Source: an uncultured Elusimicrobiales bacterium (GTDB lineage: Bacteria; Elusimicrobiota; Elusimicrobia; Elusimicrobiales; CAZFMJ01). Taken from it: DNA of 64,000 bases. Of the stretch, positions 4,078-58,549 are shown in pieces. The stretch spans positions 1,390 to 65,389 of the forward strand of contig CAZFMJ010000006.1 of assembly GCA_964520045.1 (NCBI GenBank). Reading direction: 5' to 3'. The notes beneath the pieces are model-generated. The model searched no databases, was not told where the DNA came from, and saw nothing but the letters and a program-made list of their open reading frames with translations. Each line of letters opens with the position of its first letter. Within the stretch, counting starts at the first letter, position 1. A program made the position numbers and the translations under genes.

Positions 4078-4090
4078 GATGGGGGAATAG

Positions 4091-20979: not shown

Positions 20980-21266
20980 TTATTGTTGTAGGATACGATG
21001 TGAATACTGAAACGGCAAAAGGCAGACGCAGACTGCGGCGCGTGGCTCTTGCCTGTAAAGATTACGGCCAGCGGGTGCAGAAGTCTGTTTTTGAGTGCAG
21101 GGTGGGCGGCAATGAATGGGTAAAATTCAAAACCCGGCTTCTTGCTGAAATAGAGGAAAAAGAAGACAGCCTGCGCTTTTATTTTATAGATGAAGCCGCG
21201 CAAAGGCGCACTGAGCATTACGGTCTTGGCAGGCCGGTGGATTTGGACGGCCCATTGATTGCGTGA
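20976..21266 (+). CDS. cas2: Cas2
   Basis: MIIVVGYDVNTETAKGRRRLRRVALACKDYGQRVQKSVFEC...SLRFY. ATGA overlap with cas1. Confidence 0.9.
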   Translation: MIIVVGYDVNTETAKGRRRLRRVALACKDYGQRVQKSVFECRVGGNEWVKFKTRLLAEIEEKEDSLRFYFIDEAAQRRTEHYGLGRPVDLDGPLIA

Positions 21267-21454
21267 TAAAGCCTCCGCCAACCGGAAGCGGGCGCGGTTT
21301 GTGCTGGATTTGGCGGAACTTAAAAAAGACATGAAAAACAAAGATATTTATGGAATGTGTATGGGCGAATGGCTAAGGGTATTTGATTATTTCTATTGCG
21401 TTGGCGATTTTGGGTCAAATTTGTTTTATAGTAGCAAGATATTTTGAGTATGCT

Positions 21455-22204
21455 GTTTCTCCTCTCCGAAAGGGGAGGAGTGGATTGAAACTTATGATGG
21501 TTTAGACTATCTTAAGCCTCGGTTGAGTTTCTCCTCTCCGAAAGGGGAGGAGTGGATTGAAACGTTGAACCATACAAAAGTAAACGACTGAACAAAGGTT
21601 TCTCCTCTCCGAAAGGGGAGGAGTGGATTGAAACAATTAATTCCTGTTCCATAAAGAAATCATACAAAGTTTCTCCTCTCCGAAAGGGGAGGAGTGGATT
21701 GAAACCTCAATCTTCCTGTTCAGTGTGCTACTGGCGTATGTTTCTCCTCTCCGAAAGGGGAGGAGTGGATTGAAACTAAACAATCAATATTTGTATAAAC
21801 TTTACGACCGTTTCTCCTCTCCGAAAGGGGAGGAGTGGATTGAAACATATCGACAGAATACTTGTGTCGCAGGCGGCCGGAACGTTTCTCCTCTCCGAAA
21901 GGGGAGGAGTGGATTGAAACATATACGGAGCCGAAGATAATGCGACGTTTATGAGTTTCTCCTCTCCGAAAGGGGAGGAGTGGATTGAAACATATTGTTT
22001 CATCCTGAAGTGCTTTCGTTGATTTTGTTTCTCCTCTCCGAAAGGGGAGGAGTGGATTGAAACCGCAGACTTTCCTATAAGCTGGGAGTTGTTGAGGTTT
22101 CTCCTCTCCGAAAGGGGAGGAGTGGATTGAAACTGTGAAATTGCGTAGTCGGTATCTGGTATTAATTGTTTCTCCTCTCCGAGAGGGGGGGAGTGGATTG
22201 AAAC
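21455..22204 (+). CRISPR. CRISPR array, 11 repeats of 37 nt and 10 spacers of 33-37 nt; leader on the cas2 side
   Basis: Repeat GTTTCTCCTCTCCGAAAGGGGAGGAGTGGATTGAAAC starts at 21455, 21527, 21598, 21669, 21740, 21810, 21884, 21955, 22027, 22097 and 22168. The last repeat is degenerate (gagaggggggg). The GTGGATTGAAAC 3' end is I-C-like. Confidence 0.97.
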
Positions 22205-22822: not shown

Positions 22823-22898
22823 ATAAGAACTTGCCGACAAACCGAGTGGAGATCGGGGGTGGTGTGTGGTTTTTTTCTATCCGGCGATTTCTTAATAG

Positions 22899-22962
22899 CC
22901 ATCTGGCAGTCCAACTGTTCAGCCGCCTAGCGGTCCAGCTGCCTAGCCGTCAAGCCGGTGAC
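22899..22962. repeat. stutter repeat (GTCCAGC/CTAGCCG words), homologous to the in-frame insert in purL
   Basis: gcggtccagctgcctagccgtcaagcc resembles the reverse complement of 38351-38429 (gcggtccagctgtctagctgcctcgccgtccagcc). Confidence 0.6.
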
Positions 22963-22965
22963 TTC

Positions 22966-25140
22966 TCAATGTCTGAAGTGGCGCACGCCTGTAAAGACCA
23001 TTGCGATATTATGTTCGTCCGCCGCCGCTATAACTTCCTTGTCTTTTATTGATCCGCCCGGCTCTATAACGGCCGTTGCGCCTATTTTCGCCGCTTCGTC
23101 GATCCCGTCCCTGAACGGAAAGAAAGCGTCCGAGGCGAGAGCTAAAACTCCGGCGGGTTTATTGTCTTTCATATACGCCTGATATTTTCTGCCGGCCATG
23201 TGGACGGAGTCGACCCGCGACATCTGGCCGGCGCCTATTCCCACCGTGTTATGCCTGTCCGCAAGAACTATCGCGTTTGATTTCACATGCTTGCAGACCG
23301 TCCACGCGAATTTAAGGGCTTGTTCCTCTTCTTTGGAGGGTTTGCGTTTTGTGACCGCATTCCACTCTTTGCCTAAAACTATCGAGTCGCGCTCCGTGAC
23401 AAGGGTTTCGTCGCCGGTCGAGCGCAGTATCCATTTGTTTCCGATCGGGGTTTTCCTTTCAAGCAGGCGGATGTTCTGCTTTTGGGATAAAATCTTTACC
23501 GCTTCGGGGTCGTATTCCGGAGCGGAGATAACTTCAACGAACCTTTTGGCGAGTATTTCCGCTATTTCCTTTGTGAATTTCCGGTTTACGGCTATAACTC
23601 CCCCGAAGGCCGACAAACCGTCGCAGTTCCACGCCCTGTTGAAAGCGTCAAGAAGGTTTTCGCCTTCCGCTATTCCGCACGGCGTAACGTGCTTAAAAAT
23701 AACCACGGCCGGTTTTTCAAGTTCGCAGACCGCCTCCCATGTTCCGTTCGCGTCAAGGATGTTGTTGAAAGAAAGTTCCTTGCCGTGAAGCTGGCTGAAG
23801 GAGGGGGAGCCTGAATCGGAATAAAGAGCCGCTTTCTGGTGGGGGTTTTCGCCGTATCTTAAATCCTGTATTTTTATCAGAGCGGGCTGGAACGTTTTGG
23901 GAAAAACTCCGTTATTTGAACTTTTACTAAACGCGTTGTGAATCATTGTGTCGTATTCCGCCGTATGGCCGAATGCTTCCACCGCCAGTTTTTTTCTGGT
24001 TTCTCCGCTTAGGCATCCTCCGGAAGACTCCATTTCCTTAATCACATTTTTGTATTCCGCGGGATTTGATATGACGGCCACGTCTTCAAAATTTTTTGCC
24101 GCGGCGCGCAGAAGGGCAACTCCGCCGATGTCTATTTCCTCTATGACTTTCTGCTCGAACGGCGATGCGGCGTTGGCCGCGGTTTTGGCGAACGGATATA
24201 AATTAACGGCAACAAGATCTATGGGCTCAAGTCCGAACCGCTCCGCTTCGGTCCGTTGGCGGCTGTCCTGCCTTCTGAAAAGTATGGCGCCGTGCACCAT
24301 AGGATGAAGCGTTTTGACCCGGCCCGAAAGTATTTCCGGAAATCCCGTCATGGATTCCAGCGGTCTTACGTTTATTCCGGCTTCTTTGAGCATTTTTGCC
24401 GTGCCGGAAGTGGAGACTATTTCCACGCCGAGAGCTGAAAGGCTTTTTGCAAATTCCGCCAAGCCGGTTTTGTCGGACACCGAAATAAGGGCGCGCTTTA
24501 CGGCGTTTTGCCGTTTCCCGCCGTGAGCCGTGATTTTTACCCTGCGGTTTTCCAGCTTCAGCCTGTCTTCGCAGAAAAGGCTTACGGCTCTTGGGTATAA
24601 AAGATGCTCCTGGGCATGCACTCTTTTTGCAAGGGTTTCCGGAGTGTCGCCTTCCAGCACAGGAACGCCGGCCTGAAGTATTATCGGGCCTGTATCGTAA
24701 TCCTTGTCTATAAAATGAACGGTGGCTCCGCTAAGGCGCGCCCCGGAAGCCAGCGCCGCCTCATGAACTTTCATGCCGTACATGCCTTTTCCTCCGAATG
24801 ACGGAAGGAGCGCCGGATGAATGTTCATTATATGAGGAAAACGGCTGAGCATTTGGTTTCCGAGTTTCAGCATGAATCCGGCGAGGCATATTAAATCAAT
24901 ATGTTTTTCAGAGCATAACTGCGTAAGTCTTTTGTCTAAATCTTCAGGGGAGGAATAATCCGCCGGAGTCAGGCAGACTGCCGGTATCCCCGCTTTTTCA
25001 GCCCGTTTAAGGGCTCCCGCGTCTCTGCGGCTGGAGACGACAAGCGCTATATTGCCGTTTATCCGTCCGCTTTGCGCGGAGTCTATCAAAGATTGAAGAT
25101 TAGTGCCTTCTCCGGAAGCAAATACCGCAATATTTTTCAT
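22966..25140 (-). CDS. purH: fused PurN-PurH: GAR formyltransferase (aa 1-~205) joined to AICAR formyltransferase/IMP cyclohydrolase
   Basis: N-terminus: IAVFASGEGTNLQSLID, NIHPALLP, HFIDKDYDTGPIILQ (PurN). From about aa 215: RALISVSDKTGLAEFAKSL...VKTLHP...FTGVRHFRH (PurH). One uninterrupted 724-aa ORF. Confidence 0.9.
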   Translation of the reverse strand: MKNIAVFASGEGTNLQSLIDSAQSGRINGNIALVVSSRRDAGALKRAEKAGIPAVCLTPADYSSPEDLDKRLTQLCSEKHIDLICLAGFMLKLGNQMLSRFPHIMNIHPALLPSFGGKGMYGMKVHEAALASGARLSGATVHFIDKDYDTGPIILQAGVPVLEGDTPETLAKRVHAQEHLLYPRAVSLFCEDRLKLENRRVKITAHGGKRQNAVKRALISVSDKTGLAEFAKSLSALGVEIVSTSGTAKMLKEAGINVRPLESMTGFPEILSGRVKTLHPMVHGAILFRRQDSRQRTEAERFGLEPIDLVAVNLYPFAKTAANAASPFEQKVIEEIDIGGVALLRAAAKNFEDVAVISNPAEYKNVIKEMESSGGCLSGETRKKLAVEAFGHTAEYDTMIHNAFSKSSNNGVFPKTFQPALIKIQDLRYGENPHQKAALYSDSGSPSFSQLHGKELSFNNILDANGTWEAVCELEKPAVVIFKHVTPCGIAEGENLLDAFNRAWNCDGLSAFGGVIAVNRKFTKEIAEILAKRFVEVISAPEYDPEAVKILSQKQNIRLLERKTPIGNKWILRSTGDETLVTERDSIVLGKEWNAVTKRKPSKEEEQALKFAWTVCKHVKSNAIVLADRHNTVGIGAGQMSRVDSVHMAGRKYQAYMKDNKPAGVLALASDAFFPFRDGIDEAAKIGATAVIEPGGSIKDKEVIAAADEHNIAMVFTGVRHFRH

Positions 25141-26583: not shown

Positions 26584-27830
26584 AAGATATCCTTTCTATA
26601 CTGCATTCCTTCAAAATGCACCAAAGACACGGCTTTGTATGCTTTGTCCCGCGCCTCTGAATGATTTTTGCCCCGGGCTGTTATTCCCAAAACCCTTCCT
26701 CCCGCCGTTACCCAATCGGCTCCTGATTTTTTTGTCCCGGCATGAAAGACCAGAGCATCACCGTTTTTAATATTTTCAAGGCCGCTTATAACCCTGCCGG
26801 TCAGGGGCTTTTCAGGATAGCCTTCGGACGCCAGCGCTATGCAGGCGCAGGACTGCTCATGGGTTTCTATTTTTATTTCGCCAAGCCGGCCTTCCGCGCA
26901 GAGTTTCATTATTTCAATAATATCCGTTTTTAGGAGCGGAAGCACCGCCTGCGTTTCAGGGTCGCCGAACCTGCAGTTAAATTCAAGCGTTCTCGGTCCG
27001 TCTTCTGAAATCATAACGCCCGCGTAAATTATTCCGCAGTAGTTCAGTCCGTCTTTTTTTATGCCCGCTATGAACCTGTCGAAAATTTCTGTTCTGATTC
27101 TTTCAAGGAGGACGGAGTCTATGTCCGGCACCGGCGAATAAGCGCCCATTCCGCCGGTGTTCGGGCCCAGATCGTTGTCAAGAAGACGCTTATGGTCCCG
27201 GCTTGCCGGAAGAAGCGCGTATGTTTTGCCGTCGCAGAATGCCATTATTGAGGCTTCCCTTCCGGTTAAAAATTCCTCGCAGACTATCGCTTCGCCGGAA
27301 TTTCCCAAAGTATGCGCCGTCATAAAATCATTTACCGTCCGCTCCGCTTCTTCTTTGTCCGTACATATTCTTACGCCTTTTCCGGCGGCAAGTCCGTCCG
27401 CTTTCAATACCGCGGGGAATTTCATGCGCTTTATTTGTCTAAACGCCTGTTCGGGGGACCGCCATACCGCCGACTGCGCGGCAGGGATGCGGTGCCTGTT
27501 CATGAAGTCTTTTGCAAAAGATTTGGAAGATTCCAGCCTTGCGGACGTTGATTCCGGACCGAAAACAGGTATGCCGTCTTTTTTCAGATAGTCGGCTATT
27601 CCTCCCGCAAGCGGAGCTTCGGGGCCGACCGCAGCGAGGTCTATTTTATTTGAACGGCAGAACGCTGATATCGCGGAAAAATCTTCGGGTTTTACGGGAA
27701 CGGATTCGGCAAGAGAGGAAATGGCGTCCGAACCCGGAGCGCAGTAAAATTTTTTAAGATTCGGGCTTTGCGATATTTTCCATGCCAGAGCGTGTTCCCG
27801 CCCGCCCGAACCGATCAAGAGTATGTTCAT
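26580..27830 (-). CDS. purD: phosphoribosylamine-glycine ligase
   Basis: MNILLIGSGGREHALAWK and ATP-grasp blocks; about 416 aa. Confidence 0.95.
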   Translation of the reverse strand: MNILLIGSGGREHALAWKISQSPNLKKFYCAPGSDAISSLAESVPVKPEDFSAISAFCRSNKIDLAAVGPEAPLAGGIADYLKKDGIPVFGPESTSARLESSKSFAKDFMNRHRIPAAQSAVWRSPEQAFRQIKRMKFPAVLKADGLAAGKGVRICTDKEEAERTVNDFMTAHTLGNSGEAIVCEEFLTGREASIMAFCDGKTYALLPASRDHKRLLDNDLGPNTGGMGAYSPVPDIDSVLLERIRTEIFDRFIAGIKKDGLNYCGIIYAGVMISEDGPRTLEFNCRFGDPETQAVLPLLKTDIIEIMKLCAEGRLGEIKIETHEQSCACIALASEGYPEKPLTGRVISGLENIKNGDALVFHAGTKKSGADWVTAGGRVLGITARGKNHSEARDKAYKAVSLVHFEGMQYRKDIL

Positions 27831-29182
27831 TTCTTAATGTCCGGCAGAGGGGTCGGGTATTTGCCGGTAAAGCACGCGGTGCAGAAACGGCGCTGCCGGC
27901 CTCCCGCGGCCTTGAGCATATTTTCAAGGCTTAAATAATGAAGCTCATCGGCTCCGAGGAAACGGCGCACTTTTTCAAGGCTTAATCTGCTCGCTATAAG
28001 CTCGTTCCTGCTGGGGGTGTCTATCCCGTAGTAGCAGGGCGATATGATGGGCGGGGAAGATATCGCCATTATAACCCTGCGCGCTCCTATTTTTTTCAGG
28101 CTTTTTATGATTTTTCTGGAAGTCGTTCCGCGCACTATGGAATCGTCTATGAGAACGATGTTCCTGCCCTGTATGACGTCTCTTATCGGCGCAAGTTTAA
28201 GTTCCGCGGTCAGTTCCCGCAGTTCCTGCGTGGGTTTTATAAACGACCTGCCTATGTAATGGTTGCGCATGAATCCCATGCCGAAAGGTATGCCTGAGAC
28301 TTTGGCAAATCCCATGGCGGCCGCAAGGCCCGAGTCGGGAACCGGAACCACGATATCGGCTTTCACGGGCTGCATTTCCTTCGCGAGCAGGCGTCCCATG
28401 TCGTAGCGGCTGGCCTGAACGCTTCGGCCGTTGACTATGGAATCCGGCCTTGAAAAATACACCTGCTCAAATACGCAAACCGCTTTTTTACCGGATGAGC
28501 GGAAGGGTTTGATGCTTTTTATTTTATCTTTTGTGATTACAACCACCTCTCCCGGCTCTATTTCCCTGACAACTTCGCCTTTTACAAGGTCTATGGCGGG
28601 AGTTTCCGAGGCAAGTATAAAAGATTTTCCGAGTTTTCCGAGGACAAGAGGCCTGAATCCAAGCGGGTCGCGGCAGGCTATAATTTTTCCGGGAGCCATG
28701 AATATAAAGGAATATGCTCCGCAGATATTTTTGAGACTTTTTATGATCGCGTTTTCCAGAGGCCCTTTTGAGCGCGCCATGAGGTGGACTATTACCTCGC
28801 TGTCCGTAGAAGACTGAAAAATAGCTCCCTGTTTTTCAAGGCGCCGGCGCAGGCTTTGCGCGTTGACAAGATTGCCGTTATGCGCGATGGCCACGGGTCC
28901 GTGTATATGCTCAAACGCCAGCGGCTGGGCATTTTTAAGATGCGAAACGCCGGCGGTAGAATAGCGCACATGGCCTATGGCGCTTCTTCCCGAAAGCGAA
29001 TTAAGCGCGTCTTCAGTAAATATCTCTGAGACAAGGCCCATGCCAGTGTATGCCAGCAGGGTTTCGCCGGTGTCCGTCACTATTCCGGCTGATTCCTGTC
29101 CTCTGTGCTGGAGCGCGAAAAGCCCCAAGTTGGCAAGCCTTGCGGCATTATGGTGATTTGATACGGCAAATATTCCGCACAT
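27827..29182 (-). CDS. purF: amidophosphoribosyltransferase
   Basis: MCGIFAV Ntn-amidotransferase start; PRTase loop VLIDDSIVRGTT. Confidence 0.95.
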   Translation of the reverse strand: MCGIFAVSNHHNAARLANLGLFALQHRGQESAGIVTDTGETLLAYTGMGLVSEIFTEDALNSLSGRSAIGHVRYSTAGVSHLKNAQPLAFEHIHGPVAIAHNGNLVNAQSLRRRLEKQGAIFQSSTDSEVIVHLMARSKGPLENAIIKSLKNICGAYSFIFMAPGKIIACRDPLGFRPLVLGKLGKSFILASETPAIDLVKGEVVREIEPGEVVVITKDKIKSIKPFRSSGKKAVCVFEQVYFSRPDSIVNGRSVQASRYDMGRLLAKEMQPVKADIVVPVPDSGLAAAMGFAKVSGIPFGMGFMRNHYIGRSFIKPTQELRELTAELKLAPIRDVIQGRNIVLIDDSIVRGTTSRKIIKSLKKIGARRVIMAISSPPIISPCYYGIDTPSRNELIASRLSLEKVRRFLGADELHYLSLENMLKAAGGRQRRFCTACFTGKYPTPLPDIKK

Positions 29183-29285: not shown

Positions 29286-30524
29286 TTATTTGGGAGTATA
29301 CAATCGGACCATGCTTTGGAAGCTTAGATTCCTGACAGCTTTAAAAGCGTCTATAATACCGGCGCCTTGTAAATTTCGTTCTAGTTTTGGTAATGGCGCA
29401 GCTGCATTTACCAATGCTTGACGCACTGCGGACGGCTCGTATATGCCTGCAGCTATTACCATGGCCGCGATCCCTGCTACATGCGGAGCGGCAAAAGATG
29501 TTCCATTACCCAGATCATACCAGTCACCGACCGCTGTGGAAATTATTCTATTTCCGGGAGCTATAAGAGCTATTTGCGGCCCCGACCGTCCGGTAAAAAA
29601 TTCGCCGGCTTCTGATGAATCCATAGCATTAACCGCAATTGTTTCACCATATCCTGCGGGATAAGCAACAGCTTTGGTCCCGTTGCCGTTGCCTGGCGCG
29701 CATATCATCGTGATGCCTGCTTTGTAGGCTGTTTTTACAGCAAGTTCCATGACTTCGATGGGTTGTTCTGAACCGAAGCTCATGTTAATTACCTGTATTT
29801 TTTGCTTAATACACCAATCTATTGCGGCAGCAAAATCAGCGTCGGCAAAGTCGCCTGTTTTATCTACGGCTTTTACAATATAAAGTTTTATTTTCGGAGC
29901 AACTCCGACAACACCTTTCCCGTCCTGTATGGCGGCAATAACGCCTGCTACTTTGGTCCCATGGCCATTATCATCTAAAGGCGGTTGATCCGGATGTATG
30001 GCATTATACGTGCCTGCAATATTTGGCGATAACTCGCGATGCGTAATGTCAGCGCCCGTATCGATTACGGCGACCTTAATATCATTACCCCGTGTTACAG
30101 TCCACGCCTGGCGGACATTCAATCTGTCGATGCCCCACATTTTTTCGCCGAGCCTCGCGGCATATTCCTCTCGCGTTAAAGGTGCGCTTGCGGCTGAATG
30201 CGAATTTTGTTCCGCAAATAATCCTTGCCTTTGTTTATTAGGGTATATTCTGCCTATTTCGCGTAAGGATGATTTTGGAGTTTTTATGTCTTCAGATTGC
30301 GCGAACAACACATTGATATCTGAAACGGGGAATTCCACTACCACGGCTGTTATGTAGTCAAACTTACGAATGATTCGCCCGCCTTGTTTTTCAATGTTGT
30401 TGTATACGGTTTCTCTTGGAGTGGTTTCGTCAAATATGATTATCTGCTGTATCGCATAGGCTTTAGTAAAACCGGTAAAAATGATCACATGTAACATCAG
30501 CAGCCAAAATATAATCTTTTTCAT
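29286..30524 (-). CDS. secreted S8 subtilisin-family serine protease with propeptide
   Basis: Signal peptide, then catalytic D (VAVIDTGAD), H (HGTKVAGVIAA) and S (GTSFAAPHVAGIAA). Confidence 0.9.
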   Translation of the reverse strand: MKKIIFWLLMLHVIIFTGFTKAYAIQQIIIFDETTPRETVYNNIEKQGGRIIRKFDYITAVVVEFPVSDINVLFAQSEDIKTPKSSLREIGRIYPNKQRQGLFAEQNSHSAASAPLTREEYAARLGEKMWGIDRLNVRQAWTVTRGNDIKVAVIDTGADITHRELSPNIAGTYNAIHPDQPPLDDNGHGTKVAGVIAAIQDGKGVVGVAPKIKLYIVKAVDKTGDFADADFAAAIDWCIKQKIQVINMSFGSEQPIEVMELAVKTAYKAGITMICAPGNGNGTKAVAYPAGYGETIAVNAMDSSEAGEFFTGRSGPQIALIAPGNRIISTAVGDWYDLGNGTSFAAPHVAGIAAMVIAAGIYEPSAVRQALVNAAAPLPKLERNLQGAGIIDAFKAVRNLSFQSMVRLYTPK

Positions 30525-30527
30525 TTT

Positions 30528-31004
30528 TTAAAGTTGAATTTCCGCTTTTGCAACATATATAAATTCCAGGCGACTAATTCTTGGTTCACCCAAAGACTTA
30601 TATATGCTTTTTTTGACATCTATCAATGCTCCGCCGGTCCCGTTTATTTTTTGGCGTATTGTTAATGTATAAGCATCGGCTTCTTCCTCCGTCATAGCTT
30701 CGGCATAGGGAAACTCTTTGGTGGAAATAGTCAGCCACTTGAAATCCTCAGGAGCGCGAATAGTCAATTCCACCCAGCAGACTCCTTCCTCCGGCAATGC
30801 TCCGGCGTCGCATTTTATAGTTCGGGATTGAGCTCTAATCTTGGCGCACAGTTCCTTGCCTATGATTTCAATCGATTCGGGAGAGGAGTCTAACCCGAAA
30901 GGTATGTAGGTGAATGTTTTTGATAAAGTGTTGCCTATTGATTGGGCGGCGGCATTGGACACGCTCATCGCTAGTAACAAGGTAAACATAATTGGTAATT
31001 TCAT
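30528..31004 (-). CDS. hypothetical secreted protein, 3 nt upstream of the S8 protease gene
   Basis: Signal peptide MKLPIMFTLLLAMSVSNAAA. No known domain recognised. Confidence 0.5.
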   Translation of the reverse strand: MKLPIMFTLLLAMSVSNAAAQSIGNTLSKTFTYIPFGLDSSPESIEIIGKELCAKIRAQSRTIKCDAGALPEEGVCWVELTIRAPEDFKWLTISTKEFPYAEAMTEEEADAYTLTIRQKINGTGGALIDVKKSIYKSLGEPRISRLEFIYVAKAEIQL

Positions 31005-31061
31005 CGTATTTCCCCCAGTCTATTATTTGGTTTTAATAGCTTTACAATCGCTATATTTTTA

Positions 31062-31505
31062 TCAACGGGCGCACATAAATATGGCTTCTATCCTTTCAAA
31101 GCCCTGATCGCGAGCCTTGCGGTAGCAGTCCACGGGCTTTGTGCCTCTGGCTCTGCGGCATAAATCGATTGCTTCATCTCTATCCAGCTGATATGTAACC
31201 ATATTGCGCGCAGCCTTGTAGCAAACCACAGGCCCTGTTCCGCGGGCGCCCCGGCATAAATCCATTGCCTGTTCCCGATCCAACTGGTAGGTAATCATGT
31301 CGCGCGCTGCTTTGTAACAAGCCATTGCGTCACTGCCGTCATTTTCCGAGCGCATAGCTTCTATACATGGGCTGGGAACAGGTTCGGCGGGAACTTCCTG
31401 AGCCGGAAACATTGAGGCAGATAGTGAAAACTCAGGTAATCCTGAGGCATCCGCTCTAATAGCCATTGCGGCTAGAATTCCAAACAGCGATATTGTTTTT
31501 CTCAT
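31062..31505 (-). CDS. small secreted protein with tandem ~34-aa Cys-containing repeats
   Basis: CYKAARDMITYQLDREQAMDLCRGARGTGPV / CYKAARNMVTYQLDRDEAIDLCRRARGTKPV / CYRKARDQGFERIEAIFMCAR after a signal peptide. Confidence 0.6.
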   Translation of the reverse strand: MRKTISLFGILAAMAIRADASGLPEFSLSASMFPAQEVPAEPVPSPCIEAMRSENDGSDAMACYKAARDMITYQLDREQAMDLCRGARGTGPVVCYKAARNMVTYQLDRDEAIDLCRRARGTKPVDCYRKARDQGFERIEAIFMCAR

Positions 31506-31712
31506 TTTATTCTCCTAATTTATAGACCTACAACCTATCGCCATAAATCATATCACGAAACCCGTTTTCCCGCATGGGCATTCGGGGTAGATTTTTCCGG
31601 GCATTCGGCCTAGGGGAAATCCGGGCTTTAGGCCCATATTTTTTATAGGACTTAAGGCACTGTCCGGATGCCGAACCACCTGTTAAACTATTAGTGCAAG
31701 GGGCGGGGTGAT

Positions 31713-32771
31713 ATGAACTCAAAACTAATTACGTTATCATTGGTCATAACAGCCTTTCTTACTTTCCCGGCTAATTCCGGTGCCGATGACCGATTAACAA
31801 ATATTGCTTCGCAATTGGGAGCCGATCCTTCCATAACCGGCAGTATCCCGGAACCGGCTGCCGTTCCTGCCGATATACAGCGCGGTGAAACCGGCGGAAA
31901 ACGCATGTCGGCCGAGACTATCAGCGCTGAATTCGGCGTTACCTTAAAAGACGGCGCGAGCGATTGGCAAACCTCGGAGCTTGAAGCTGTTTACGGGCTT
32001 TTCAAAAGTCTGCGCCTGTCCAAGGATTTTTTGCGGAAACTGGAGCTGAAATATATAGTCAGGCAGACTTTCAAGCCGGGCGTAATAATGGCCGCGTTGT
32101 ATGTGAATGATAAGCCCGGGGATAAATATCTGGAAGTCTTCGACTTCCTCTATAAAGGCAATTTTGCCGATTTCCCGCCGGCAAGCCGGCCCGGCAGGCG
32201 GCTGCAGGAGGCGCTGGCGCACGAGATAGGGCACGCATGGCAGGAACACTTCACCGATTATAATGCCGACGGCGATTACCGCTTTGCCGGGCAGTCCGTC
32301 ATAAACCGCAGATTATCGGAAGATGCGGAATTTAAAAAAGTGTACGGCCTTATTTATGCCAGGAATAAAATCCGGCTTGAAGACGTTCCCGAAAACCAGA
32401 AAATTGATTTGATAAATTCCGTTCTGCAGGACGCGTCTCCGCGGGAAAAAACCGCTCTGCTTAAGGGACTGCTTTCGGAACGCAATCTTGAATCCTGCGG
32501 GAAAATAAATGATTTTGCGCGGATATCCGGCTGGAAGGGAGTCAATAAGCTGACCGGAGAAACGGCTGATTTTAACAAAGATAGTCTTGACGGATTGTTT
32601 TTTCAGAACGCAAAACCCTCCGCGCAGATGCTTTCGTCTGAAGCGGAACGCGCTCCCACCGAGGATTTTGCCGAAAGTGTAAGATATTATGTCTTTTATC
32701 CTGAACAGCTCCGCATGCACAGCCTTGAAAAATACAATTACATCAAACAGCGCGTATTTAACGGGCGCTAA
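31713..32771 (+). CDS. secreted putative zinc metallopeptidase (HEXXH)
   Basis: Signal peptide plus EALAHEIGHAWQEH. Family not recognised. Confidence 0.55.
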   Translation: MNSKLITLSLVITAFLTFPANSGADDRLTNIASQLGADPSITGSIPEPAAVPADIQRGETGGKRMSAETISAEFGVTLKDGASDWQTSELEAVYGLFKSLRLSKDFLRKLELKYIVRQTFKPGVIMAALYVNDKPGDKYLEVFDFLYKGNFADFPPASRPGRRLQEALAHEIGHAWQEHFTDYNADGDYRFAGQSVINRRLSEDAEFKKVYGLIYARNKIRLEDVPENQKIDLINSVLQDASPREKTALLKGLLSERNLESCGKINDFARISGWKGVNKLTGETADFNKDSLDGLFFQNAKPSAQMLSSEAERAPTEDFAESVRYYVFYPEQLRMHSLEKYNYIKQRVFNGR

Positions 32772-32940
32772 GTCTTAGGAAGGCTTTGTTTAACTGCGCG
32801 CCTGAAGGCAGACCTTTCCGGACATTTGACCTGCTTGAAATTAAGAAAAAAACCCCATACTGTCGTAATAGGCCGAATAGTCCGGAAATATTACCCTTAA
32901 TGCCCATGCGGAAAAAGTAAAACTGCTCTATAATATTGTT

Positions 32941-34221
32941 ATGAAAAGGCGTAAAATCATTCGTTTTACGGCAGTGGCCGCGCTTTGCGTCTGCAGCGCA
33001 TTCTGCGTTCCTCGGGCGCATGCCGACAGCGGGTCTTTGCCTAATCTAAACGTTTCATCAGAGATCAAAGACTGGACCATAATGATATTTATGAACGGAA
33101 AATCCAGCGATTTGCAGGGATACGCGCTGAAAGATATCAACGAAATGGAGGCGATAGGCCCTGCTAAGCGGATGAACGTGGTTGTGCAGGTCAGCCGCAT
33201 AGCGCAGCTGCCTAACCCGATGAATCCGGCCCCTGTTGACCGGTTTTATGAAAATTGGTCCGGAACGAGGCGGTATGAGATACAAAAAGATGAAATGTCT
33301 TATCGGGTAACTTCGCCGCTCAGGCAGGACATGGGCAGGAATGTCGATATGGGCAATTGGACAAATCTGGCTGATTTCGGCAGCTGGGCTAAGGCAAATT
33401 ATCCGGCCAAAAGATACATGCTTATCGTATGGAACCATGGCGACGGGTGGCGCAATGAAAAACCCCAAAAATCTAAATTTGAAAAAAGCAAGGCTATTTC
33501 AGAAGATCCGGAAAGCGGGAACTACATCTCAACCAATGAGCTTGCCTCGGCTCTCGGGCAAATGGGCGGAGTAGATGTATATGCAAGCGATGCATGCCTG
33601 ATGCAGACTATTGAAGTCGCATACGGCTTGAAAAATTACGCCTCGGTTATAACCGGCTCCGAAGCTAATGAGCCCGGAGACGGCTATGCTTATGATGTTT
33701 TTTTCCGCGCGCTTAAAACCCATTCCAAACCGTCTCCGGAAGCGATGGCCTACTACGCCGTTATGAGCTACAGAAAATTTTATTCCGGAACACATGCGAC
33801 ACAATCAGCCGTGCGGGGCGGCCGGGCAATGGAAGAGTTTAGGGGCATATTGGATGACTGGGCCGATGAAGCTATAAAAAGCGGTGAAGCCAAAATATTA
33901 AAGGAAATAAAAGCCCGTACCAAAAGTTTCGATGATTTTGAAATGAAGGACGTCATACACTTCCTTGAATTGGTAAAAGATATTCCTTATAATCCCGCGC
34001 TTGAACCGCTTAAAGCCAAGAGCCGCGATGCCGTCAACTATTTCTACGGGAACGTGCTTATTTTAAACGGCGTTCCGCCAGGACAAATTCCCGATGCGCA
34101 CGGCATGACAATTTATCTGCCTGAAAATGAAAACACGTTTGACCCCAATTATAAGCGTCTTGCCTGGGCGCAAGAAAGCAAATGGGATGAATTTATTGAA
34201 TGGCTCCTGAAAAAAAGATAA
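32941..34221 (+). CDS. secreted clostripain-like cysteine peptidase (C11 family)
   Basis: Signal peptide; LIVWNHGDGW (catalytic His-Gly) and YASDACLMQ (catalytic Cys) at the C11 spacing. Confidence 0.8.
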   Translation: MKRRKIIRFTAVAALCVCSAFCVPRAHADSGSLPNLNVSSEIKDWTIMIFMNGKSSDLQGYALKDINEMEAIGPAKRMNVVVQVSRIAQLPNPMNPAPVDRFYENWSGTRRYEIQKDEMSYRVTSPLRQDMGRNVDMGNWTNLADFGSWAKANYPAKRYMLIVWNHGDGWRNEKPQKSKFEKSKAISEDPESGNYISTNELASALGQMGGVDVYASDACLMQTIEVAYGLKNYASVITGSEANEPGDGYAYDVFFRALKTHSKPSPEAMAYYAVMSYRKFYSGTHATQSAVRGGRAMEEFRGILDDWADEAIKSGEAKILKEIKARTKSFDDFEMKDVIHFLELVKDIPYNPALEPLKAKSRDAVNYFYGNVLILNGVPPGQIPDAHGMTIYLPENENTFDPNYKRLAWAQESKWDEFIEWLLKKR

Positions 34222-34264
34222 TGTTGTAAAATATGCGGAAATAAAGACTGGGGATGAACCGGAA

Positions 34265-35212
34265 ATGAAAACTATAATAATCTGCGTGTTTTTTGGAATA
34301 AGCGTTTTATCCGGAAGTTTAAATGCCGCGGAGACGGCGGCGGACGCCGATTTACTGAGACAGCTTGCGGTCATAGAGCTTAACGAGGAGGCATTCCAGA
34401 CACAGCCTGCTGTTTCACGGCTACCGCCCGGAGTGGGGCTTCTGGACGGAAAAATCGTTTATGAAAAGGTCTCGCAGATTTTAAAAAGCTCTGGAGTTCC
34501 GCAGGGCTATGTTGATTCGATTTTTAAGGACTCCCGTCTGGCTGTGATAGAAAAAACTTTGGAAGCGATACACAAGCCCGCCGAATCCCTGCCGTATGAG
34601 GAATACAGGAAAAGGCTTATAACCGAAAAGCGGATAAACGACGGGGTTCAGTTTTACAATATCAATAAACAGGTGCTGTTCGGGGCCGCGCAAAGCAAAG
34701 GCATTGATCCTTTGATACTGCTGAGCATAACGGGCATAGAAAGCAGTTTCGGCCAGAACAGGGGCGCGTATATAGTCACGAACGCTCTTTATACCTTAAG
34801 CAGAATGACGTCCGAGAGCCGGCCTGATCTGGCAAAAAAATGGCAGGAGCGCGGCCCCAGAGATTTGGCGGCGTTTATCAAATATGCGCATAAAATGGGA
34901 TTTGATCCGTTCGGCATTACCGGTTCCTATGCCGGAGCCTTCGGCTTTTGCCAGTTTATGCCTTTAAGCGTGGAAGTTTATGCCGTGGATTTTAACAATG
35001 ACGGAATAATAGATCTATATAATTGGGCTGATGTTTTCGGCAGTATCGCGAATTATCTGGCCAAAAGCGGTTATAAGCCCGACAGCGCTGATTATTCTCC
35101 CGGCGGAGACATCTGGAAAGCCATATATGCTTACAACCACTACGAAAATTATGTAAAGGTTATTCTGGATTTAAGGCTTGAAATTAAAAAGAAAGTGGAA
35201 GCAGCGCCATAA
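34265..35212 (+). CDS. lytic murein transglycosylase (MltB/SLT_2-like)
   Basis: Signal peptide; ITGIESSFGQ catalytic Glu block; GSYAGAFGFCQFMP. Confidence 0.8.
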   Translation: MKTIIICVFFGISVLSGSLNAAETAADADLLRQLAVIELNEEAFQTQPAVSRLPPGVGLLDGKIVYEKVSQILKSSGVPQGYVDSIFKDSRLAVIEKTLEAIHKPAESLPYEEYRKRLITEKRINDGVQFYNINKQVLFGAAQSKGIDPLILLSITGIESSFGQNRGAYIVTNALYTLSRMTSESRPDLAKKWQERGPRDLAAFIKYAHKMGFDPFGITGSYAGAFGFCQFMPLSVEVYAVDFNNDGIIDLYNWADVFGSIANYLAKSGYKPDSADYSPGGDIWKAIYAYNHYENYVKVILDLRLEIKKKVEAAP

Positions 35213-35220
35213 AATCGGGC

Positions 35221-36315
35221 ATGATAAATAAAATGTCAGGCAAAAATTGGATATTGGCAGGATGCGTGATTATTGCCGGTATAATAGCCGGCGGCAGATA
35301 TGTTTTAACCAGTTATCACAATAATGATATCAAGGACGCGCTGAATGACACTGAATGGGCAAAACCAATAACCAAAATATCTGATAATACTGATGTTCCG
35401 CCGGTTCCCGCTCCCAGCCCGAGTCCAAACACGAAAGAGCCTGATACAAGTGAGCTTCTTCGTTCTTTACTTGAACCGCAGATTATCGCCAGGCCTCCGT
35501 GCATACAAGAACCAGAACACATAGATTTACAATGTCAATTTCCGACAGAATCAACTGACCAGCACGATGTGGGTTCGTGTCATGCCTTTGCCGCCATAGC
35601 TCTTATGGAGGCCGCATACTTCAGGCAATACGGCGAACATGTAAAATTTTCAGAAGCGGATTTGTTGGTGAGAAATACCATATTAACACCGCTGTATTAT
35701 CATAAATATAACATTCAATCGGACGTTGAAGTATTTGAAGGCAATCGTATTTTCGGCGATATTGGAGGTATGCTTAAAAACGGCGTATCACGGCAAAAAA
35801 CTTATGAAGAATTTATGATTCATTACCCCAAATACCGCAACGATGAAATAGCAATGTTGTCTTGGCTGAAAAGCCAGCCTGCTATTATGCGTTGGTTTGT
35901 CAATCCTGCCAAGGCAATGGAATACACCAAAAATGACAGGCAGATGCAGTTATTAGGCAAAAAATTTGATTATGAGCGGCACGAATTTAAAGAAAAAATA
36001 AAAAATTTTGAAATAAAAATTACAACTTATGCTGCTTATTCGCTGGATAACCTAACTCGCGAACAATGTAAAGCGGCAGGCATTAAACAAAAAAACTTTA
36101 TTATTTCTGAATTAAAAGCCGGCAGACCTGTGGTAATTGGCTATGTCGCATTAGAGGGGGAGCATGGGGTAGTTATAGATGGCATGAGGAAAGTTGCTAA
36201 CTTAACGTACTTCACTTTGCGAAACTCAAATAAGGTAGATAAATATCTCCAAGATACTGAATTTTGCACAATATGTGAAATTACTTCTCTTATCACACCG
36301 TCGGATAAAAAATAG
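35221..36315 (+). CDS. membrane-anchored papain-like (C1-like) cysteine peptidase
   Basis: N-terminal TM helix; QHDVGSCHAFAAIALMEAAYF matches the Q...GSCWAF nucleophile block; a later EGEHGVVIDG is the candidate His. Confidence 0.6.
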   Translation: MINKMSGKNWILAGCVIIAGIIAGGRYVLTSYHNNDIKDALNDTEWAKPITKISDNTDVPPVPAPSPSPNTKEPDTSELLRSLLEPQIIARPPCIQEPEHIDLQCQFPTESTDQHDVGSCHAFAAIALMEAAYFRQYGEHVKFSEADLLVRNTILTPLYYHKYNIQSDVEVFEGNRIFGDIGGMLKNGVSRQKTYEEFMIHYPKYRNDEIAMLSWLKSQPAIMRWFVNPAKAMEYTKNDRQMQLLGKKFDYERHEFKEKIKNFEIKITTYAAYSLDNLTREQCKAAGIKQKNFIISELKAGRPVVIGYVALEGEHGVVIDGMRKVANLTYFTLRNSNKVDKYLQDTEFCTICEITSLITPSDKK

Positions 36316-37059
36316 TTATTTGCAGTATTTCACGGTATTTCTGAAAAATTCCAAACCTATTGCGGAGGAATCCGAATCCTTCCTTGTCCAGGAAGGATGA
36401 TGGTATTTTGAGGCGTTTCTTTCAGGATGGGGCATGAGTCCGAAGCAGTTCCCCGTCTCATTGCATATTCCGGCTATGTCGCATACGGAGCCGTTGGGAT
36501 TGTCCGTATATTGAAGTGCTATTCCTCCCGCCCGCGTTATTTTTTGAAGAGTCCGCTTTGAATCCGTTATGAATTTTCCTTCTCCGTGCGCGATGGGCAG
36601 TTCTATGAATTCAGGCAGGCCTTTTGTAAACAGGCAGGGACTGTTTTTGTTTACCTTAAGTTTCACCCATTTTGCCAGAAAATGTCCGCAGTCGTTAAAG
36701 GCAAGGCTTGCGCTCTGTTTGAAATCATCGGCATAAGGAAGCATTCCTGTTTTTACCAAAACCTGAAAGCCGTTGCATATCCCTATCACGGGCCTGCCGC
36801 TTTTTATGAATTCCGGCAAATCTTTAAGATGGCGCGTCACCTGATTGGCGAGAATTTTCCCCGCGGCGATGTCGTCTCCGTAGGAGAATCCTCCCGGAAA
36901 CGCGAGTATGGAATAATCAAGAAGTTTTACATCTCCTGAAATCAGGGATTTTATATGAATACGCTCGGGCGCTCCGCCCGCAGTTTTGAATGCGTTTTCC
37001 GTTTCAATGTCGCAGTTCGTGCCCGCCGTTCGGATTATTAAAACCTTAGGTTTTTTCAT
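36316..37059 (-). CDS. purQ: FGAM synthase glutaminase subunit
   Basis: GICNGFQVL nucleophile elbow and MPHPER; about 247 aa. Confidence 0.9.
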   Translation of the reverse strand: MKKPKVLIIRTAGTNCDIETENAFKTAGGAPERIHIKSLISGDVKLLDYSILAFPGGFSYGDDIAAGKILANQVTRHLKDLPEFIKSGRPVIGICNGFQVLVKTGMLPYADDFKQSASLAFNDCGHFLAKWVKLKVNKNSPCLFTKGLPEFIELPIAHGEGKFITDSKRTLQKITRAGGIALQYTDNPNGSVCDIAGICNETGNCFGLMPHPERNASKYHHPSWTRKDSDSSAIGLEFFRNTVKYCK

Positions 37060-37239: not shown

Positions 37240-39828
37240 TTATTTGAAAAATGTACATAGCGGACGCTTCCAGCGATCTTTCAAATTTTCAAGGGATTCT
37301 TCAATAACTGTCTTATTGTTAAGCCCCGTTATTTTCAATGTCTTTTCTTCTGTTGTCCGGCCTAGTTCGGCGCAGACCGCTCCGGCCATGCATTTTAGAA
37401 ATTTTAATTTGTTTTCAGGATGAATTTCCATAAGTATTCTGCTTTGCGATTCCGAAAACAGCAGTATTGAATCAGAAACGGATTTTCCCGCAAAAGGCAT
37501 ATTTTTAAGTTTTATATCTGCCCCGCAGTCCCCGGAGAAAGCCATTTCAGCGATGCACGCCCCAAGCCCGCCCTGCGAAAGGTCATGGGCTGAAAGTATC
37601 AGTTCTTTATTTATGGCAGAAAGCAGGGATTTGTAGGTTTTGAATGCTTTCTTAGGATTTGTTTTCGGAACATTAAAATCGCTTACGCCTGTTATTTCGG
37701 AGTAGATAGAGCCTCCGGTCTCGGCGAAGGTTTCGCCTATTATATAAAGCAGGTTTCCCGCGCTCTTTATATCCATTGTAAGCGCTTTTCTTATGTCGTT
37801 TACCGGAGCGGAGGCCGAAATTAAAATCGTGGAAGGTATATCAAGATTTTTGCCGTCTGCGTCTTTTGACCGGTTGTAAAAGCTGTCTTTTCCCGAAATA
37901 AAAGGGGCCTCGTATGCTTTTGAGGCTTCATAGCATCCTTTGGCGCAGCGCACAAGCTCTCCCAGCAATTCAGGATCTTCCGGACTGCCCCAGCAGAAAT
38001 TATCCAGAAAAGCGCATTTGGTTATGTCGGCTCCCGCGCACAGAAGATTTCGGACGGCTTCGTCCGCGCATGAAAGCGCCATCCAGTACGGGTCTAATTT
38101 TCCGAATGCGGGATTGATGCCGTGGCTTACCGCAAATCCGGAGAAATCGGACATGTCGCCGGTGGCTGAGCGCGGCCATATTACGCAGGCATCGCCGGGT
38201 CCGTCGGCATATTTACCCTGAAGCGGTTTTATAACAGTTCCGCCCTGCACTTCATGGTCGTACTGCTGTATCACCGGTTCCCTGCTGCAGACATTAAGGT
38301 GGGAAAGCGCCGCTTTAAGTATTTCTCCGTAATTTTCCTGTCCAATGTGCCGCTGGACGGCTGGATGGCTGGACGGCGAGGCAGCTAGACAGCTGGACCG
38401 CCAGACTGCTGGACCGCTGGACTGGTGACATGGGTTTACTGATGACTGGGTGCCTTTTTCTGGGGGGATAACTGTAATTTTTCGGTTAATCCGCAATTTT
38501 TCGGTTTTGATCTTCTCCTGCGGTTTCCATACAGCGGAACGTTTTATTTTAGGCAGTCCGCTGTGCAGGAAGTCCATTCCTATATCAATGATTGTTTCTT
38601 CATGGAATGTCACAACAAGCCTGCCTGTGCCGGTAAATGTTCCCAAGACCGCATGCTCGCAGTTTTCCGCGTCAAAGATTTCTTCCAGTTTCCTCAGGTT
38701 TTCCGGAGGAACCGCGAATATCATTCTTTCCTGCGATTCGGATACCCATATTTCCCACGGCAGTATGTTTGAATCTTTTAGTTTTGCTTTTTCCAGATGA
38801 ACTTTTGCCCCGCATTCTGAGCCTAGTTCTCCTATGGCCGAGGAAAATCCGCCGGCCCCGCAGTCCGTAACCGCCCTGTAAAGTTTTTTGTCGCGCGCTT
38901 TTAAGAGGCAGTCCAGCGCCTTTTTTTCATTTATGGCATGGCCTATCTGAACTGCTGATGCGGATGCGTTTTCAAGCGAAGCCGAGGAAAAGGTGGCTCC
39001 GTGCAGGCCGTCCCTGCCCGTTCTGCCTCCCGCGGCAAATATTATGTCGCCGGGATTTACCTTTTTTGATACTGCCCAAACCGGCATTATTCCCACTGTT
39101 CCGACGAACACAAGAGGGTTGAGCATGTAGCCTTCGTCAAAATGTATCGCTCCCGCGGCGGTGGGAATGCCCATGCGGTTTCCGTAATCGCGCACTCCCG
39201 CCACTACGCCTTTGAATATGCGCTCCGGAGACAAGGCTGATTTCGGGAGATTTTTTTTGTAGCCGGGGGGGGCGAAGCAGAAAATATCGGTATTAAGCAC
39301 CGGTTTTGCTCCGAGACCTACTCCAAGCACGTCGCGCACCACCCCGCCCACTCCGGTTTCCGCTCCGCCGTAGGGCTCTATGGCGCAGGGGTGGTTATGC
39401 GTTTCGGCTTTAAAAGCCAATGCCCATTTGCCGGATTTCCCGAATTTAACGACCCCGGCGTTGTCTTTGAATACCGAAAGGCACCATGGCTTTGAAAGTT
39501 CAATGGTCGCTTTTTGTATGTATTTTTTAAAAAGCCCCTCGGGAATAAATTGTGTTTTTCCGTTTTCTTTATATAAAATCGGGCCTGTGAATGTTTTGTG
39601 TTTGCAGTGTTCCGACCATGTCTGGGCTATTGTTTCAATTTCACCCAGAGACGGCTGTCTGCCCGTTTTTTTGAAATGGGTCTGGATATATTGAAGCTCC
39701 TGTATGTTCAGCGACCATCCAGCGGAATTATTAAGGAATTCCAGTTGTTTATTGTTAAGGCCGTTGAATGATCCAAGCAGGTTCTCGGGATTTAACATTT
39801 TCCGCGTTCTTGTTTTTAACATAGTCAC
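37240..39828 (-). CDS. purL: FGAM synthase II (PurL) with ~35-40-aa in-frame low-complexity insert
   Basis: SEHCKHKTF, ETHNHP, AIEPYGGAETGVGG and QYDHEVQGGT blocks. 862 aa, longer than I expect for small-type PurL. The insert is encoded by 38351-38429. Confidence 0.9.
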   Translation of the reverse strand: MTMLKTRTRKMLNPENLLGSFNGLNNKQLEFLNNSAGWSLNIQELQYIQTHFKKTGRQPSLGEIETIAQTWSEHCKHKTFTGPILYKENGKTQFIPEGLFKKYIQKATIELSKPWCLSVFKDNAGVVKFGKSGKWALAFKAETHNHPCAIEPYGGAETGVGGVVRDVLGVGLGAKPVLNTDIFCFAPPGYKKNLPKSALSPERIFKGVVAGVRDYGNRMGIPTAAGAIHFDEGYMLNPLVFVGTVGIMPVWAVSKKVNPGDIIFAAGGRTGRDGLHGATFSSASLENASASAVQIGHAINEKKALDCLLKARDKKLYRAVTDCGAGGFSSAIGELGSECGAKVHLEKAKLKDSNILPWEIWVSESQERMIFAVPPENLRKLEEIFDAENCEHAVLGTFTGTGRLVVTFHEETIIDIGMDFLHSGLPKIKRSAVWKPQEKIKTEKLRINRKITVIPPEKGTQSSVNPCHQSSGPAVWRSSCLAASPSSHPAVQRHIGQENYGEILKAALSHLNVCSREPVIQQYDHEVQGGTVIKPLQGKYADGPGDACVIWPRSATGDMSDFSGFAVSHGINPAFGKLDPYWMALSCADEAVRNLLCAGADITKCAFLDNFCWGSPEDPELLGELVRCAKGCYEASKAYEAPFISGKDSFYNRSKDADGKNLDIPSTILISASAPVNDIRKALTMDIKSAGNLLYIIGETFAETGGSIYSEITGVSDFNVPKTNPKKAFKTYKSLLSAINKELILSAHDLSQGGLGACIAEMAFSGDCGADIKLKNMPFAGKSVSDSILLFSESQSRILMEIHPENKLKFLKCMAGAVCAELGRTTEEKTLKITGLNNKTVIEESLENLKDRWKRPLCTFFK
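38351..38429. repeat. stutter repeat (GCTGGAC words) lying in-frame inside purL
   Basis: cgctggacggctggatggctggacggcgaggcagctagacagctggaccgccagactgctggaccgctggactggtgac. Confidence 0.75.
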
Positions 39829-39936: not shown

Positions 39937-40581
39937 TTACATAATCGAAAAAGTGTTCACGATCGGGTTTACGAAAGTTTTTTTAACGGCATTTTCAATT
40001 TGTCTGCCGGAAGCCGGCGTTTTTAGCAGATAAGCCGTTCCGCAGCGGACGGACTCAGGCTCTTTAAGGCCTAAATCGGCGATCGCTTTTTTAACGCTTT
40101 CCCCCGGCACATCGGTTACCGAGTCTTTAAGCCATACTTCCACCCTGCGCCAGCCCTTCAAGGGGAAGGTGGAGTGCGAGACGGCTGGACTGTCCAAACA
40201 ATCCTTAAAAGCAGTGAGTTTGGACTGATCCATTCTCAAAGCCATTGAGGAAGGAATGGGACAGCTGGACAGTTGGGCCGCCGGAAACTGGTGATTTTTT
40301 TCTCTCTGGTGACCTTTTCCGCTGGAAACTGGTGACTTTTTCTGGAGAGGCAATTGCGGGAGTTGTATTGCATCGCAGGTTTCAGTTACCCTGTCGCATA
40401 AAAGTTCGTTCATTATCAGGTTTATTTCATCCTGCCGGAAATCGCCGGTTATTTTGTAAAGGCGGGAAACAGATGCCGAATGGGCCGAATCAAAGCCGCT
40501 TGTTTTAAGCGTTGATATGACATGCGCTTCTTCCGATTTGGCAAATTCCGGTTTTGTGCTGATTTCTATAACAAAATTCAT
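39937..40581 (-). CDS. purS: PurS-like protein with two PurS-type domains joined by repeat-derived linker (or purS plus an upstream in-frame ORF)
   Basis: C-terminus VEVWLKDSVTDVPGESVKKAIADLGL...VRCGTAYLL...FVNPIVNTFSI is a canonical PurS. The N-terminal 70 aa are PurS-like (RLYKITG...LLCDRVTE). An alternative GTG start lies at 40143. Confidence 0.75.
   Translation of the reverse strand: MNFVIEISTKPEFAKSEEAHVISTLKTSGFDSAHSASVSRLYKITGDFRQDEINLIMNELLCDRVTETCDAIQLPQLPLQKKSPVSSGKGHQREKNHQFPAAQLSSCPIPSSMALRMDQSKLTAFKDCLDSPAVSHSTFPLKGWRRVEVWLKDSVTDVPGESVKKAIADLGLKEPESVRCGTAYLLKTPASGRQIENAVKKTFVNPIVNTFSIM
40192..40345. repeat. double-hairpin element (40192-40261) plus stutter repeat (40262-40345), in-frame inside the purS ORF
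   Basis: Homology to 8468-8540 (reverse complement), and ggaaactggtgac occurs twice. Confidence 0.7.
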
Positions 40582-58294: not shown

Positions 58295-58320
58295 TTTGTT
58301 TCCTAGGGCTAATAAAAGAA

Positions 58321-58548: not shown

Positions 58549-58549
58549 A

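Follow-up and report, generated by a model that had tools for sequence, protein, structure and literature searches.

A small, G+C-rich repeat element has probably inserted in frame in purL and purS, two neighbouring purine biosynthesis genes of an uncultured Elusimicrobiales bacterium. Both genes lie in the window analysed here, a stretch of 64,000 nucleotides (nt) from contig CAZFMJ010000006.1 of assembly GCA_964520045.1. The inserts fall in linkers of two subunits of formylglycinamidine ribonucleotide (FGAM) synthase. We consider it probable that they are tolerated, translated and near-neutral insertions, at permissive sites, of a dispersed element specific to this lineage. They look like selfish or junk DNA tolerated in essential proteins with no new function. 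The features of the first gene are as follows.

37240-39828, minus strand: purL (FGAM synthase subunit II), an open reading frame (ORF) of 862 residues that is intact but for the insert, identified by Pfam, PDB matches and best database matches.
38347-38478, minus strand: in-frame insert in purL of ~132 nt or ~44 residues (residues 451-494, ITVIPPEK...PAVQRH).
38347-38434, minus strand: degenerate octamer array (GTCCAGCN, ~9-10 units) with a GCAC tail, within purL, from Tandem Repeats Finder, a period-8 scan and a position-weight matrix (PWM).
38428-38478, minus strand: non-repeat "head" (CAGTTATCCCCCCAGAAAAAGGCACCCAGTCATCAGTAAACCCATGTCACCAG) within the purL insert, from DNA alignment to the head of the purS insert.

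The length of 862 residues given in the initial annotation was borne out for the purL ORF, and the NCBI call for the product (P0001) is 852 residues long. The protein shares 55-64% identity with Elusimicrobia PurL and matched PDB entries 3viu and 3d54, and its best database matches place the host in the Elusimicrobiota. A Pfam search detected FGAR-AT_linker, AIRS and AIRS_C domains arranged as a linker and two AIRS/AIRS_C halves, and a multiple alignment with 20 orthologues showed that more than 200 columns invariant among the orthologues are kept. With the linker, both halves and the invariant residues present, the protein is a PurL. Because so many orthologue-invariant columns are retained, purL does not appear to be a pseudogene.

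The initial annotation had reported a repeat array in frame within purL at 38351-38429. The sequence at this position is as quoted, and the array was recovered by Tandem Repeats Finder (38352-38422; period 8, 8.9 copies, 74% matches) and by a period-8 self-match scan, in which the purL locus alone in the window reached at least 28 of 40 positions. It is the strongest period-8 signal of the window, and no locus in the window attained the same threshold at periods 5-7 or 9-12. On the coding strand the array reads GTCACCA, followed by GTCCAGCG GTCCAGCA GTCTGGCG GTCCAGCT GTCTAGCT GCCTCGCC GTCCAGCC ATCCAGCC GTCCAGCG and then GCAC. The low-complexity peptide SSVNPCHQSSGPAVWRSSCLAASPSSHPAVQRHIGQ corresponds to PurL residues 462-497 (nt 38338-38445). 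The array is real, but the insert is larger than was first described, since it also includes the ~50-nt non-repeat head. The insert has a G+C content of 60%, compared with 48% for the remainder of the gene.

The alignment places the added segment between the two AIRS/AIRS_C halves, in agreement with the proposal that it occupies an inter-domain linker. All 20 of the aligned Elusimicrobia PurL orthologues (58-64% identity) lack it. The connector between AVW... and ...GxILxxxLxHLNVCSRE is ~20 residues long in the orthologues, lysine-rich, poorly conserved and variable in both length and sequence; the window PurL has 66 residues in the same connector, an excess of ~44. The insert takes the place of nothing and lengthens a variable linker joining the two PurL halves. 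None of the 120 best PurL database matches is longer than 833 residues, compared with 852 or 862 for the window protein. A search of the insert peptide against 1.84 billion representative proteins returned no homologue, the three weak matches being to unrelated repeat proteins. The possibility raised at the outset, that orthologues of unrelated lineages carry a homologous peptide at this position and the linker is ancestral, therefore found no support among the 20 orthologues, the 120 matches or the 1.84 billion proteins.

The position of the insert was also considered in three dimensions, as the initial annotation had suggested. The HMMER alignment to Thermus PurL (3viu) is broken at the insert, with query residues 391-500 corresponding to only 62 residues of the structure. 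An AlphaFold model of PurL built on the orthologue alignment was of moderate overall quality (mean predicted local distance difference test score, pLDDT, of 68.7) and matched 3viu with a template modelling (TM) score of 0.74 in Foldseek. Residues 439-496 of the model have pLDDT values below 50 and no secondary structure, and lie between two elements modelled with confidence, a strand (430-434) and a helix (500-509). The model supports assignment of the insert as a disordered linker but is not decisive.

The initial annotation described a single insertion, in purL. That insertion stands, but a second in-frame copy in the adjacent purS gene had been overlooked.

39937-40581, minus strand: purS, a fused double-PurS gene encoding 214 residues (Pfam PurS).
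40174-40365, minus strand: second in-frame insert (residues 73-136, 62-64 residues) in the linker between the PurS halves, from BLASTP and multiple alignment.

In the Elusimicrobia, PurS consists of two PurS domains fused in tandem, as seen in the window protein and in homologues P0122-P0138, although Pfam detects only the second half. The homologues are fused double-PurS proteins of 148-166 residues, compared with 214 in the window, and BLASTP and multiple alignment showed that the purS insert is missing from 17 of 17. An AlphaFold model of PurS gave pLDDT values above 90 for both halves and of 34-59 for the segment joining them. The purS insert contains a head, two pieces of array (40255-40286 and 40167-40190, minus strand), which are its two matches to the PWM of the unit, and the motif (G/A)TCACCAG three times. 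It belongs to the same element family as the purL insert.

At the DNA level the two inserts have in common a non-repeat head of about 50-55 nt, and their tails are alike. The head lies upstream of the array in each case and runs CAGTTATCCCCCCAGAAAAAGGCACCCAGT...GTCACCAG in purL and CAATTGCCTCTCCAGAAAAAGTCACCAGT...GTCACCAG in purS. The head alignment scores 40, compared with 21.6 +/- 4.1 for shuffled sequences (maximum 38; none of 500 reached 40), and the 10-mer CCAGAAAAAG is confined to the purL and purS heads when both strands of the window are checked. The head homology begins 4-9 nt from the insert boundaries, which were set independently by the protein alignments, and both inserts terminate in GTCCAGCCGTC(CAGCG/TC)GCAC. 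The DNA common to both inserts falls in a different frame in each gene: CCA GAA AAA GGC encodes PEKG in purL, whereas C CAG AAA AAG encodes QKK in purS, and the purS-type frame of the purL copy holds stop codons. Because of this difference in frame, the inserts are related as DNA and not as peptides, and are copies of one DNA element. Reading in different frames is as predicted for insertion of a repeat element and is at odds with a protein segment that was acquired or ancestral.

The repeat unit was then considered across the window as a whole, where the pattern GTCCAGCNGTCYRGC with up to two mismatches has 16 matches, compared with 0.76 expected. When the unit PWM was scored over 3-4 tandem units and compared with shuffled sequence, four loci (4073-4144, 22893-22964, 38343-38430 and 40255-40286) exceeded every shuffle; the score of the purL array was 39.9 against a shuffle maximum of 16.5. 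Two of the four loci are intergenic.

22893-22964, plus strand: intergenic array of a related octamer unit between two convergent genes (PWM score 37.7).
4073-4144, minus strand: intergenic array of a related octamer unit with inverted, hairpin-forming halves (PWM score 31.2).

The array at 22893-22964 stops 1 nt short of the purNH stop codon (22966-22968). A terminator function was tested for, and neither a terminator-like site nor a significant RNA fold was found in this array. It is the repeat downstream of purH with which the initial annotation had grouped the purL array. That kinship holds for the unit. The purL and purH-adjacent arrays can be aligned with equal identity at several 8-nt offsets, with no unique register, and so their relationship is established for the unit and not for the arrays as a whole. 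The array at 4073-4144 has an RNA fold z-score of -4.0 on the plus strand and shares the sub-motif CCAGTTTCC with the purS head. No Rfam family covers the arrays. Outside them, the heptamer GTCCAGC is not enriched, occurring 7 times compared with a heptamer mean of 8, and because it is not over-represented the arrays did not condense from a common genomic word and independent seeding is unlikely. The proposal that a normally intergenic repeat had landed in purL is supported: the unit does recur between genes, although copies are few, with two intergenic and two genic in the window. The landing itself, that is, mobility, we infer from the homology between the purL and purS insert DNAs.

The main alternative origin would be growth of the array in situ by replication slippage in existing linkers, with the likeness of the purL and purS inserts arising from a one-off, local segmental duplication or from gene conversion of one neighbour by the other, and with no part played by a dispersed mobile element. 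A tandem repeat of a short unit is the kind of sequence that slippage yields, and the equivalence of several registers is in keeping with it, as is the frequency of period-8 octamer arrays in bacteria and phages: permuted control octamers gave 18 and 68 matches in viral contigs, compared with 17 for the unit of the element. The two head-bearing copies are, moreover, on one strand and 1.9 kb apart. However, the ~50-nt non-repeat head is beyond the reach of slippage, and the unusual G+C-rich unit recurs at four loci that are separated by as much as 36 kb, even though its heptamer is not over-represented elsewhere. The presence of CCAGTTTCC in both 4073-4144 and the purS head, and of related arrays in other Elusimicrobia metagenome-assembled genomes (MAGs, below), also count against slippage, which we think unlikely.

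The composition of the unit bears on how both host genes stay open. The consensus (GTC CAG CNG TCC AGC NGT CCA GCN) and its complement (NGC TGG ACN GCT GGA CNG CTG GAC) are free of stop codons in all six frames. TAG arises only from degenerate units such as GTCTAGCT, and is out of frame in purL. Because the consensus octamer is stop-free in six frames, a copy leaves the gene open provided that its length is divisible by three and it has no in-frame TAG. Two of three sense frames are open in the purL element and one of three in the purS element, and each gene uses an open one. In the orientation of both genic copies the consensus encodes a Ser/Pro/Ala/Gln-rich (VQxSSxPA)n peptide; the sense translation of the array accordingly has an 8-residue period (HQSSGPAV / WRSSCLAA / SPSSHPAV) and a linker-like composition.

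The window is derived from a MAG, and assemblers can be misled by repeats, so that an assembly artefact had to be considered together with loss of function of purL. Six contigs (L124-L129) that cover the purS insert match the window at 99.9-100% identity with no gaps. One of these, L126 (7022 nt), from an independent groundwater assembly of another run, crosses both inserts with a single mismatch, which lies outside them at 39155. An identical PurS is encoded in ENA ERZ909572, ERZ909575 and ERZ909578 (groundwater project PRJNA292723), Logan SRR5855240, ENA ERZ5996431 and JGI 3300009031. Because independent assemblies match without gaps, the inserts are not assembly artefacts. The flanks on both sides of the insert continue purL in the same frame and all orthologue-invariant residues are kept, and we regard an artefact or a purL pseudogene as scarcely credible. 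Two of the contigs, L124 and L125 (ENA ERZ5996431 and JGI 3300009031), both break at window position 40413, 48 nt upstream of the purS insert, which may be a shared break in the assembly graph or the result of the same data having been assembled twice.

The same assemblies, which come from several samples and number two for purL and seven for purS, were used to look for the length polymorphism that the initial annotation had thought worth checking. No variation in insert length was seen among them, and this invariance speaks against ongoing slippage or phase variation of the array. A contingency locus, in which gain or loss of 8-nt units would switch purL on and off by frameshift, is suggested by the location of the array within an ORF and by a unit length not divisible by three. 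Contingency loci, as known in Haemophilus, Neisseria and others, share these two properties but consist of near-perfect repeats with observable length polymorphism, whereas the window array is 74% conserved, a divergence that suppresses slippage, and is of constant length in the assemblies. There would also be no obvious gain from turning off an essential biosynthetic gene. Phase variation at this locus is highly improbable.

A more general function for the inserts was also weighed, either as flexible linkers tuning PurL-PurS-PurQ assembly or as nucleic acid sites regulating the purine cluster. Both bearers of an insert are subunits of one complex, three of the four copies are in or beside pur genes, the inserts are fixed in every assembly, and strong hairpins are found in some of the copies between genes (z = -4.0 at 4073-4144; z = -5.3 in the Elusimicrobia contig L049). 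The pur/gua cluster makes up about one-third of the window, though, and three of four copies near it is not significant (p ~0.12). The genic inserts fold no better than shuffled sequences (z = -1.6 for purL and -1.0 for purS). The peptides differ because the frames differ, the insert peptide is without homologues, and none of the orthologues (20 PurL and 17 PurS) needs such a linker. We therefore judge a functional role to be very unlikely.

The preferred reading, insertion of a dispersed element, finds parallels in several known systems. Rickettsia palindromic elements (RPEs) are short (~100-200 bp) repeats described, as relayed in PMC10969869, as occurring both between genes and in frame in unrelated housekeeping genes, where the extra peptide is compatible with the fold (Ogata et al. 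2000, 2002). The purL and purS inserts resemble RPEs in being in-frame insertions in conserved protein-coding genes and missing from the orthologues. RPEs, though, are palindromic and have a conserved peptide in one frame, whereas the window element is a non-palindromic 8-nt array read in two frames, resides in a different phylum and has far fewer documented copies; RPEs are also marked by many dispersed copies with a consensus, and in the 64 kb analysed here four copies are visible, two with a head, and the peptides are not conserved since the frames differ. MITEs (miniature transposable elements with inverted repeats) and related small repeats (ERIC, BOX and the Anabaena MITEs) are non-autonomous and can form in-frame fusions with host ORFs (PMC10969869). 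The window element is likewise small, non-autonomous and in frame in host ORFs, but neither inverted repeats at its ends nor a target-site duplication nor a partner transposase was found. Inverted repeats are absent from the purL insert, and a repeat search gave no terminal inverted pair; because of this and of the non-significant folds of the genic copies, the element lacks both the palindrome that defines RPEs and the inverted termini that define MITEs. A direct repeat, AAAATTAC, flanks the purL insert; its spacing of 145 nt is not divisible by three, and it lies off the homology boundaries.

The STRR sequences of cyanobacteria (repetitive tracts of short units repeated in tandem) have heptamer units, and the known intragenic case is in an RNA gene. 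They are said to have been found by Vioque in 1997 inside the gene for RNase P RNA. The window element has the STRR-like trait of one short unit in tandem arrays scattered in the intergenic DNA of the lineage. In both systems lineage-typical arrays of 7-8-nt units are sometimes tolerated in a functional gene at a permissive site. The window unit is, however, an octamer accompanied by a non-repeat head, and is found in two protein-coding hosts of the Elusimicrobiota; it is not an STRR sequence proper. The element works like RPEs and STRRs yet departs from their defining structure in lacking a palindrome and inverted termini and in being built on an octamer unit. It is conceivable, although we consider it improbable, that the head and octamer array represent an undescribed class of Elusimicrobia mobile element with no inverted termini, a tandem tail open in six frames, a mode of copying such as stuttering of a polymerase or reverse transcriptase, and a routine habit of colonising linkers. 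Such an element would be translated in whichever frame its insertion lands.

We propose that the element is a small, G+C-rich, non-autonomous sequence consisting of a ~50-nt head with CCAGAAAAAG and (G/A)TCACCAG motifs, a degenerate (GTCCAGCN)n array and a GCAC tail. It occupies at least four places of this genome fragment, two intergenic and two in frame in the linkers of the adjacent purL and purS genes, and would have dispersed by copying. The inserts would most likely be translated as disordered surface loops that neither aid nor seriously harm FGAM synthase, and are apparently fixed in the sampled population. We infer both translation and neutrality, and several observations weigh against this account. 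The purL and purS copies are merely 1.9 kb apart, and local duplication could mimic mobility. The window holds four copies of the element with the head common to two of these, and homology of entire arrays is unproven given their lack of a unique mutual register. Neither terminal inverted repeats, target-site duplications nor a transposase or reverse transcriptase partner was identified for the element. No close relative provides an empty site, the nearest PurL among the matches being 64% identical. Taken by themselves, low pLDDT values are weak grounds for assigning disorder, as the conserved PurL residues 141-246 also have low values.

If correctly interpreted, the two inserts would provide a clean case of one DNA element translated in two frames in an essential enzyme complex, each frame in a different subunit. 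Inserts of this kind make proteins longer and add low-complexity regions that are spurious, and in MAGs both annotation and the calling of orthologues can be misled by them. No new biochemical function is indicated and the purine pathway looks ordinary.

Arrays with related units were found in other Elusimicrobia MAGs. Contig L049 has (GGCTTGAC AGCTAGAC)x5 opposite (GTCCAGCY)x4, with a fold z-score of -5.3, and contig L007 (43% G+C) has two arrays of the window unit within 4.7 kb, both of which seem to lie between ORFs. No such array is present at the pur loci of three relatives that are nearer. Inverted half-arrays with strong hairpins thus occur between genes both in the window (4073-4144) and in L049 (4183-4333), and by analogy these hairpin-forming copies suggest a role, or at least a structure, like that of repetitive extragenic palindromic (REP) sequences.

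Beyond the Elusimicrobia, a scan of genome contigs for GTCYRGC octamer arrays gave at least 119 loci, mostly long arrays in high-G+C Streptomyces, Burkholderia and Gemmatimonadales, and long GTCCGGCN, GTCTGGCG and GTCCAGCC arrays were present in many phyla among the matches listed. GTCYRGC arrays were dropped as a special cross-phylum signal, and no cross-phylum significance is claimed, because the permuted controls were equally or more frequent in viral contigs; a third control octamer was a rotation of the element unit and was set aside as invalid. Period-8 arrays of such composition are generic simple repeats. A synthetic (VQxSSxPA)n protein query had no match. A search of metagenome contigs with a pattern for the head-array junction was also abandoned: the 120 listed matches represent an unrelated conserved coding motif of high-G+C genomes, and none is window-like. 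Several Gemmatimonadales MAGs (L006, L019, L051 and L062, DASUAH01; L037 and L056; L041 and L047; L024 and L078) have several contigs each with octamer arrays, the units being GTCCAGCC, GTCTAGCC or GTCCGGCC. These may be a dispersed family of that order's own.

Elsewhere in the window, an Rfam match to group II intron domain V/VI was found at 62771-62841 on the plus strand (48 bits). Nothing ties it to the element, and there is no obvious reverse transcriptase ORF upstream on its strand; the match may represent an intron that is degraded or has no ORF. The purine cluster is split by ~7 kb (29286-36315) between purF (27827-29182) and purQ (36316-37059), with genes for an S8 subtilase, a C11 clostripain-like peptidase, a C1/C10-like peptidase and an SLT transglycosylase in the interval, whereas purQ adjoins purF in the relative L001. 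A clustered regularly interspaced short palindromic repeat (CRISPR) locus at 20964-22200 begins with a Cas2 gene (20964-21266; Pfam CRISPR_Cas2, E = 1e-21) and continues with an array (Tandem Repeats Finder, 21526-21846) whose repeat, GTTTCTCCTCTCCGAAAGGGGAGGAGTGGATTGAAAC, is 37 nt long. Repeat-derived peptide motifs in spurious ORFs suggest that the array reaches ~22200. Finally, a 76-nt tandem repeat at 58312-58621 (3.4 copies, 97% identical) abuts and overlaps tRNA-Val(cac) (58550-58621, minus strand), and its units could have originated as tRNA 3' ends that were duplicated during integration events.

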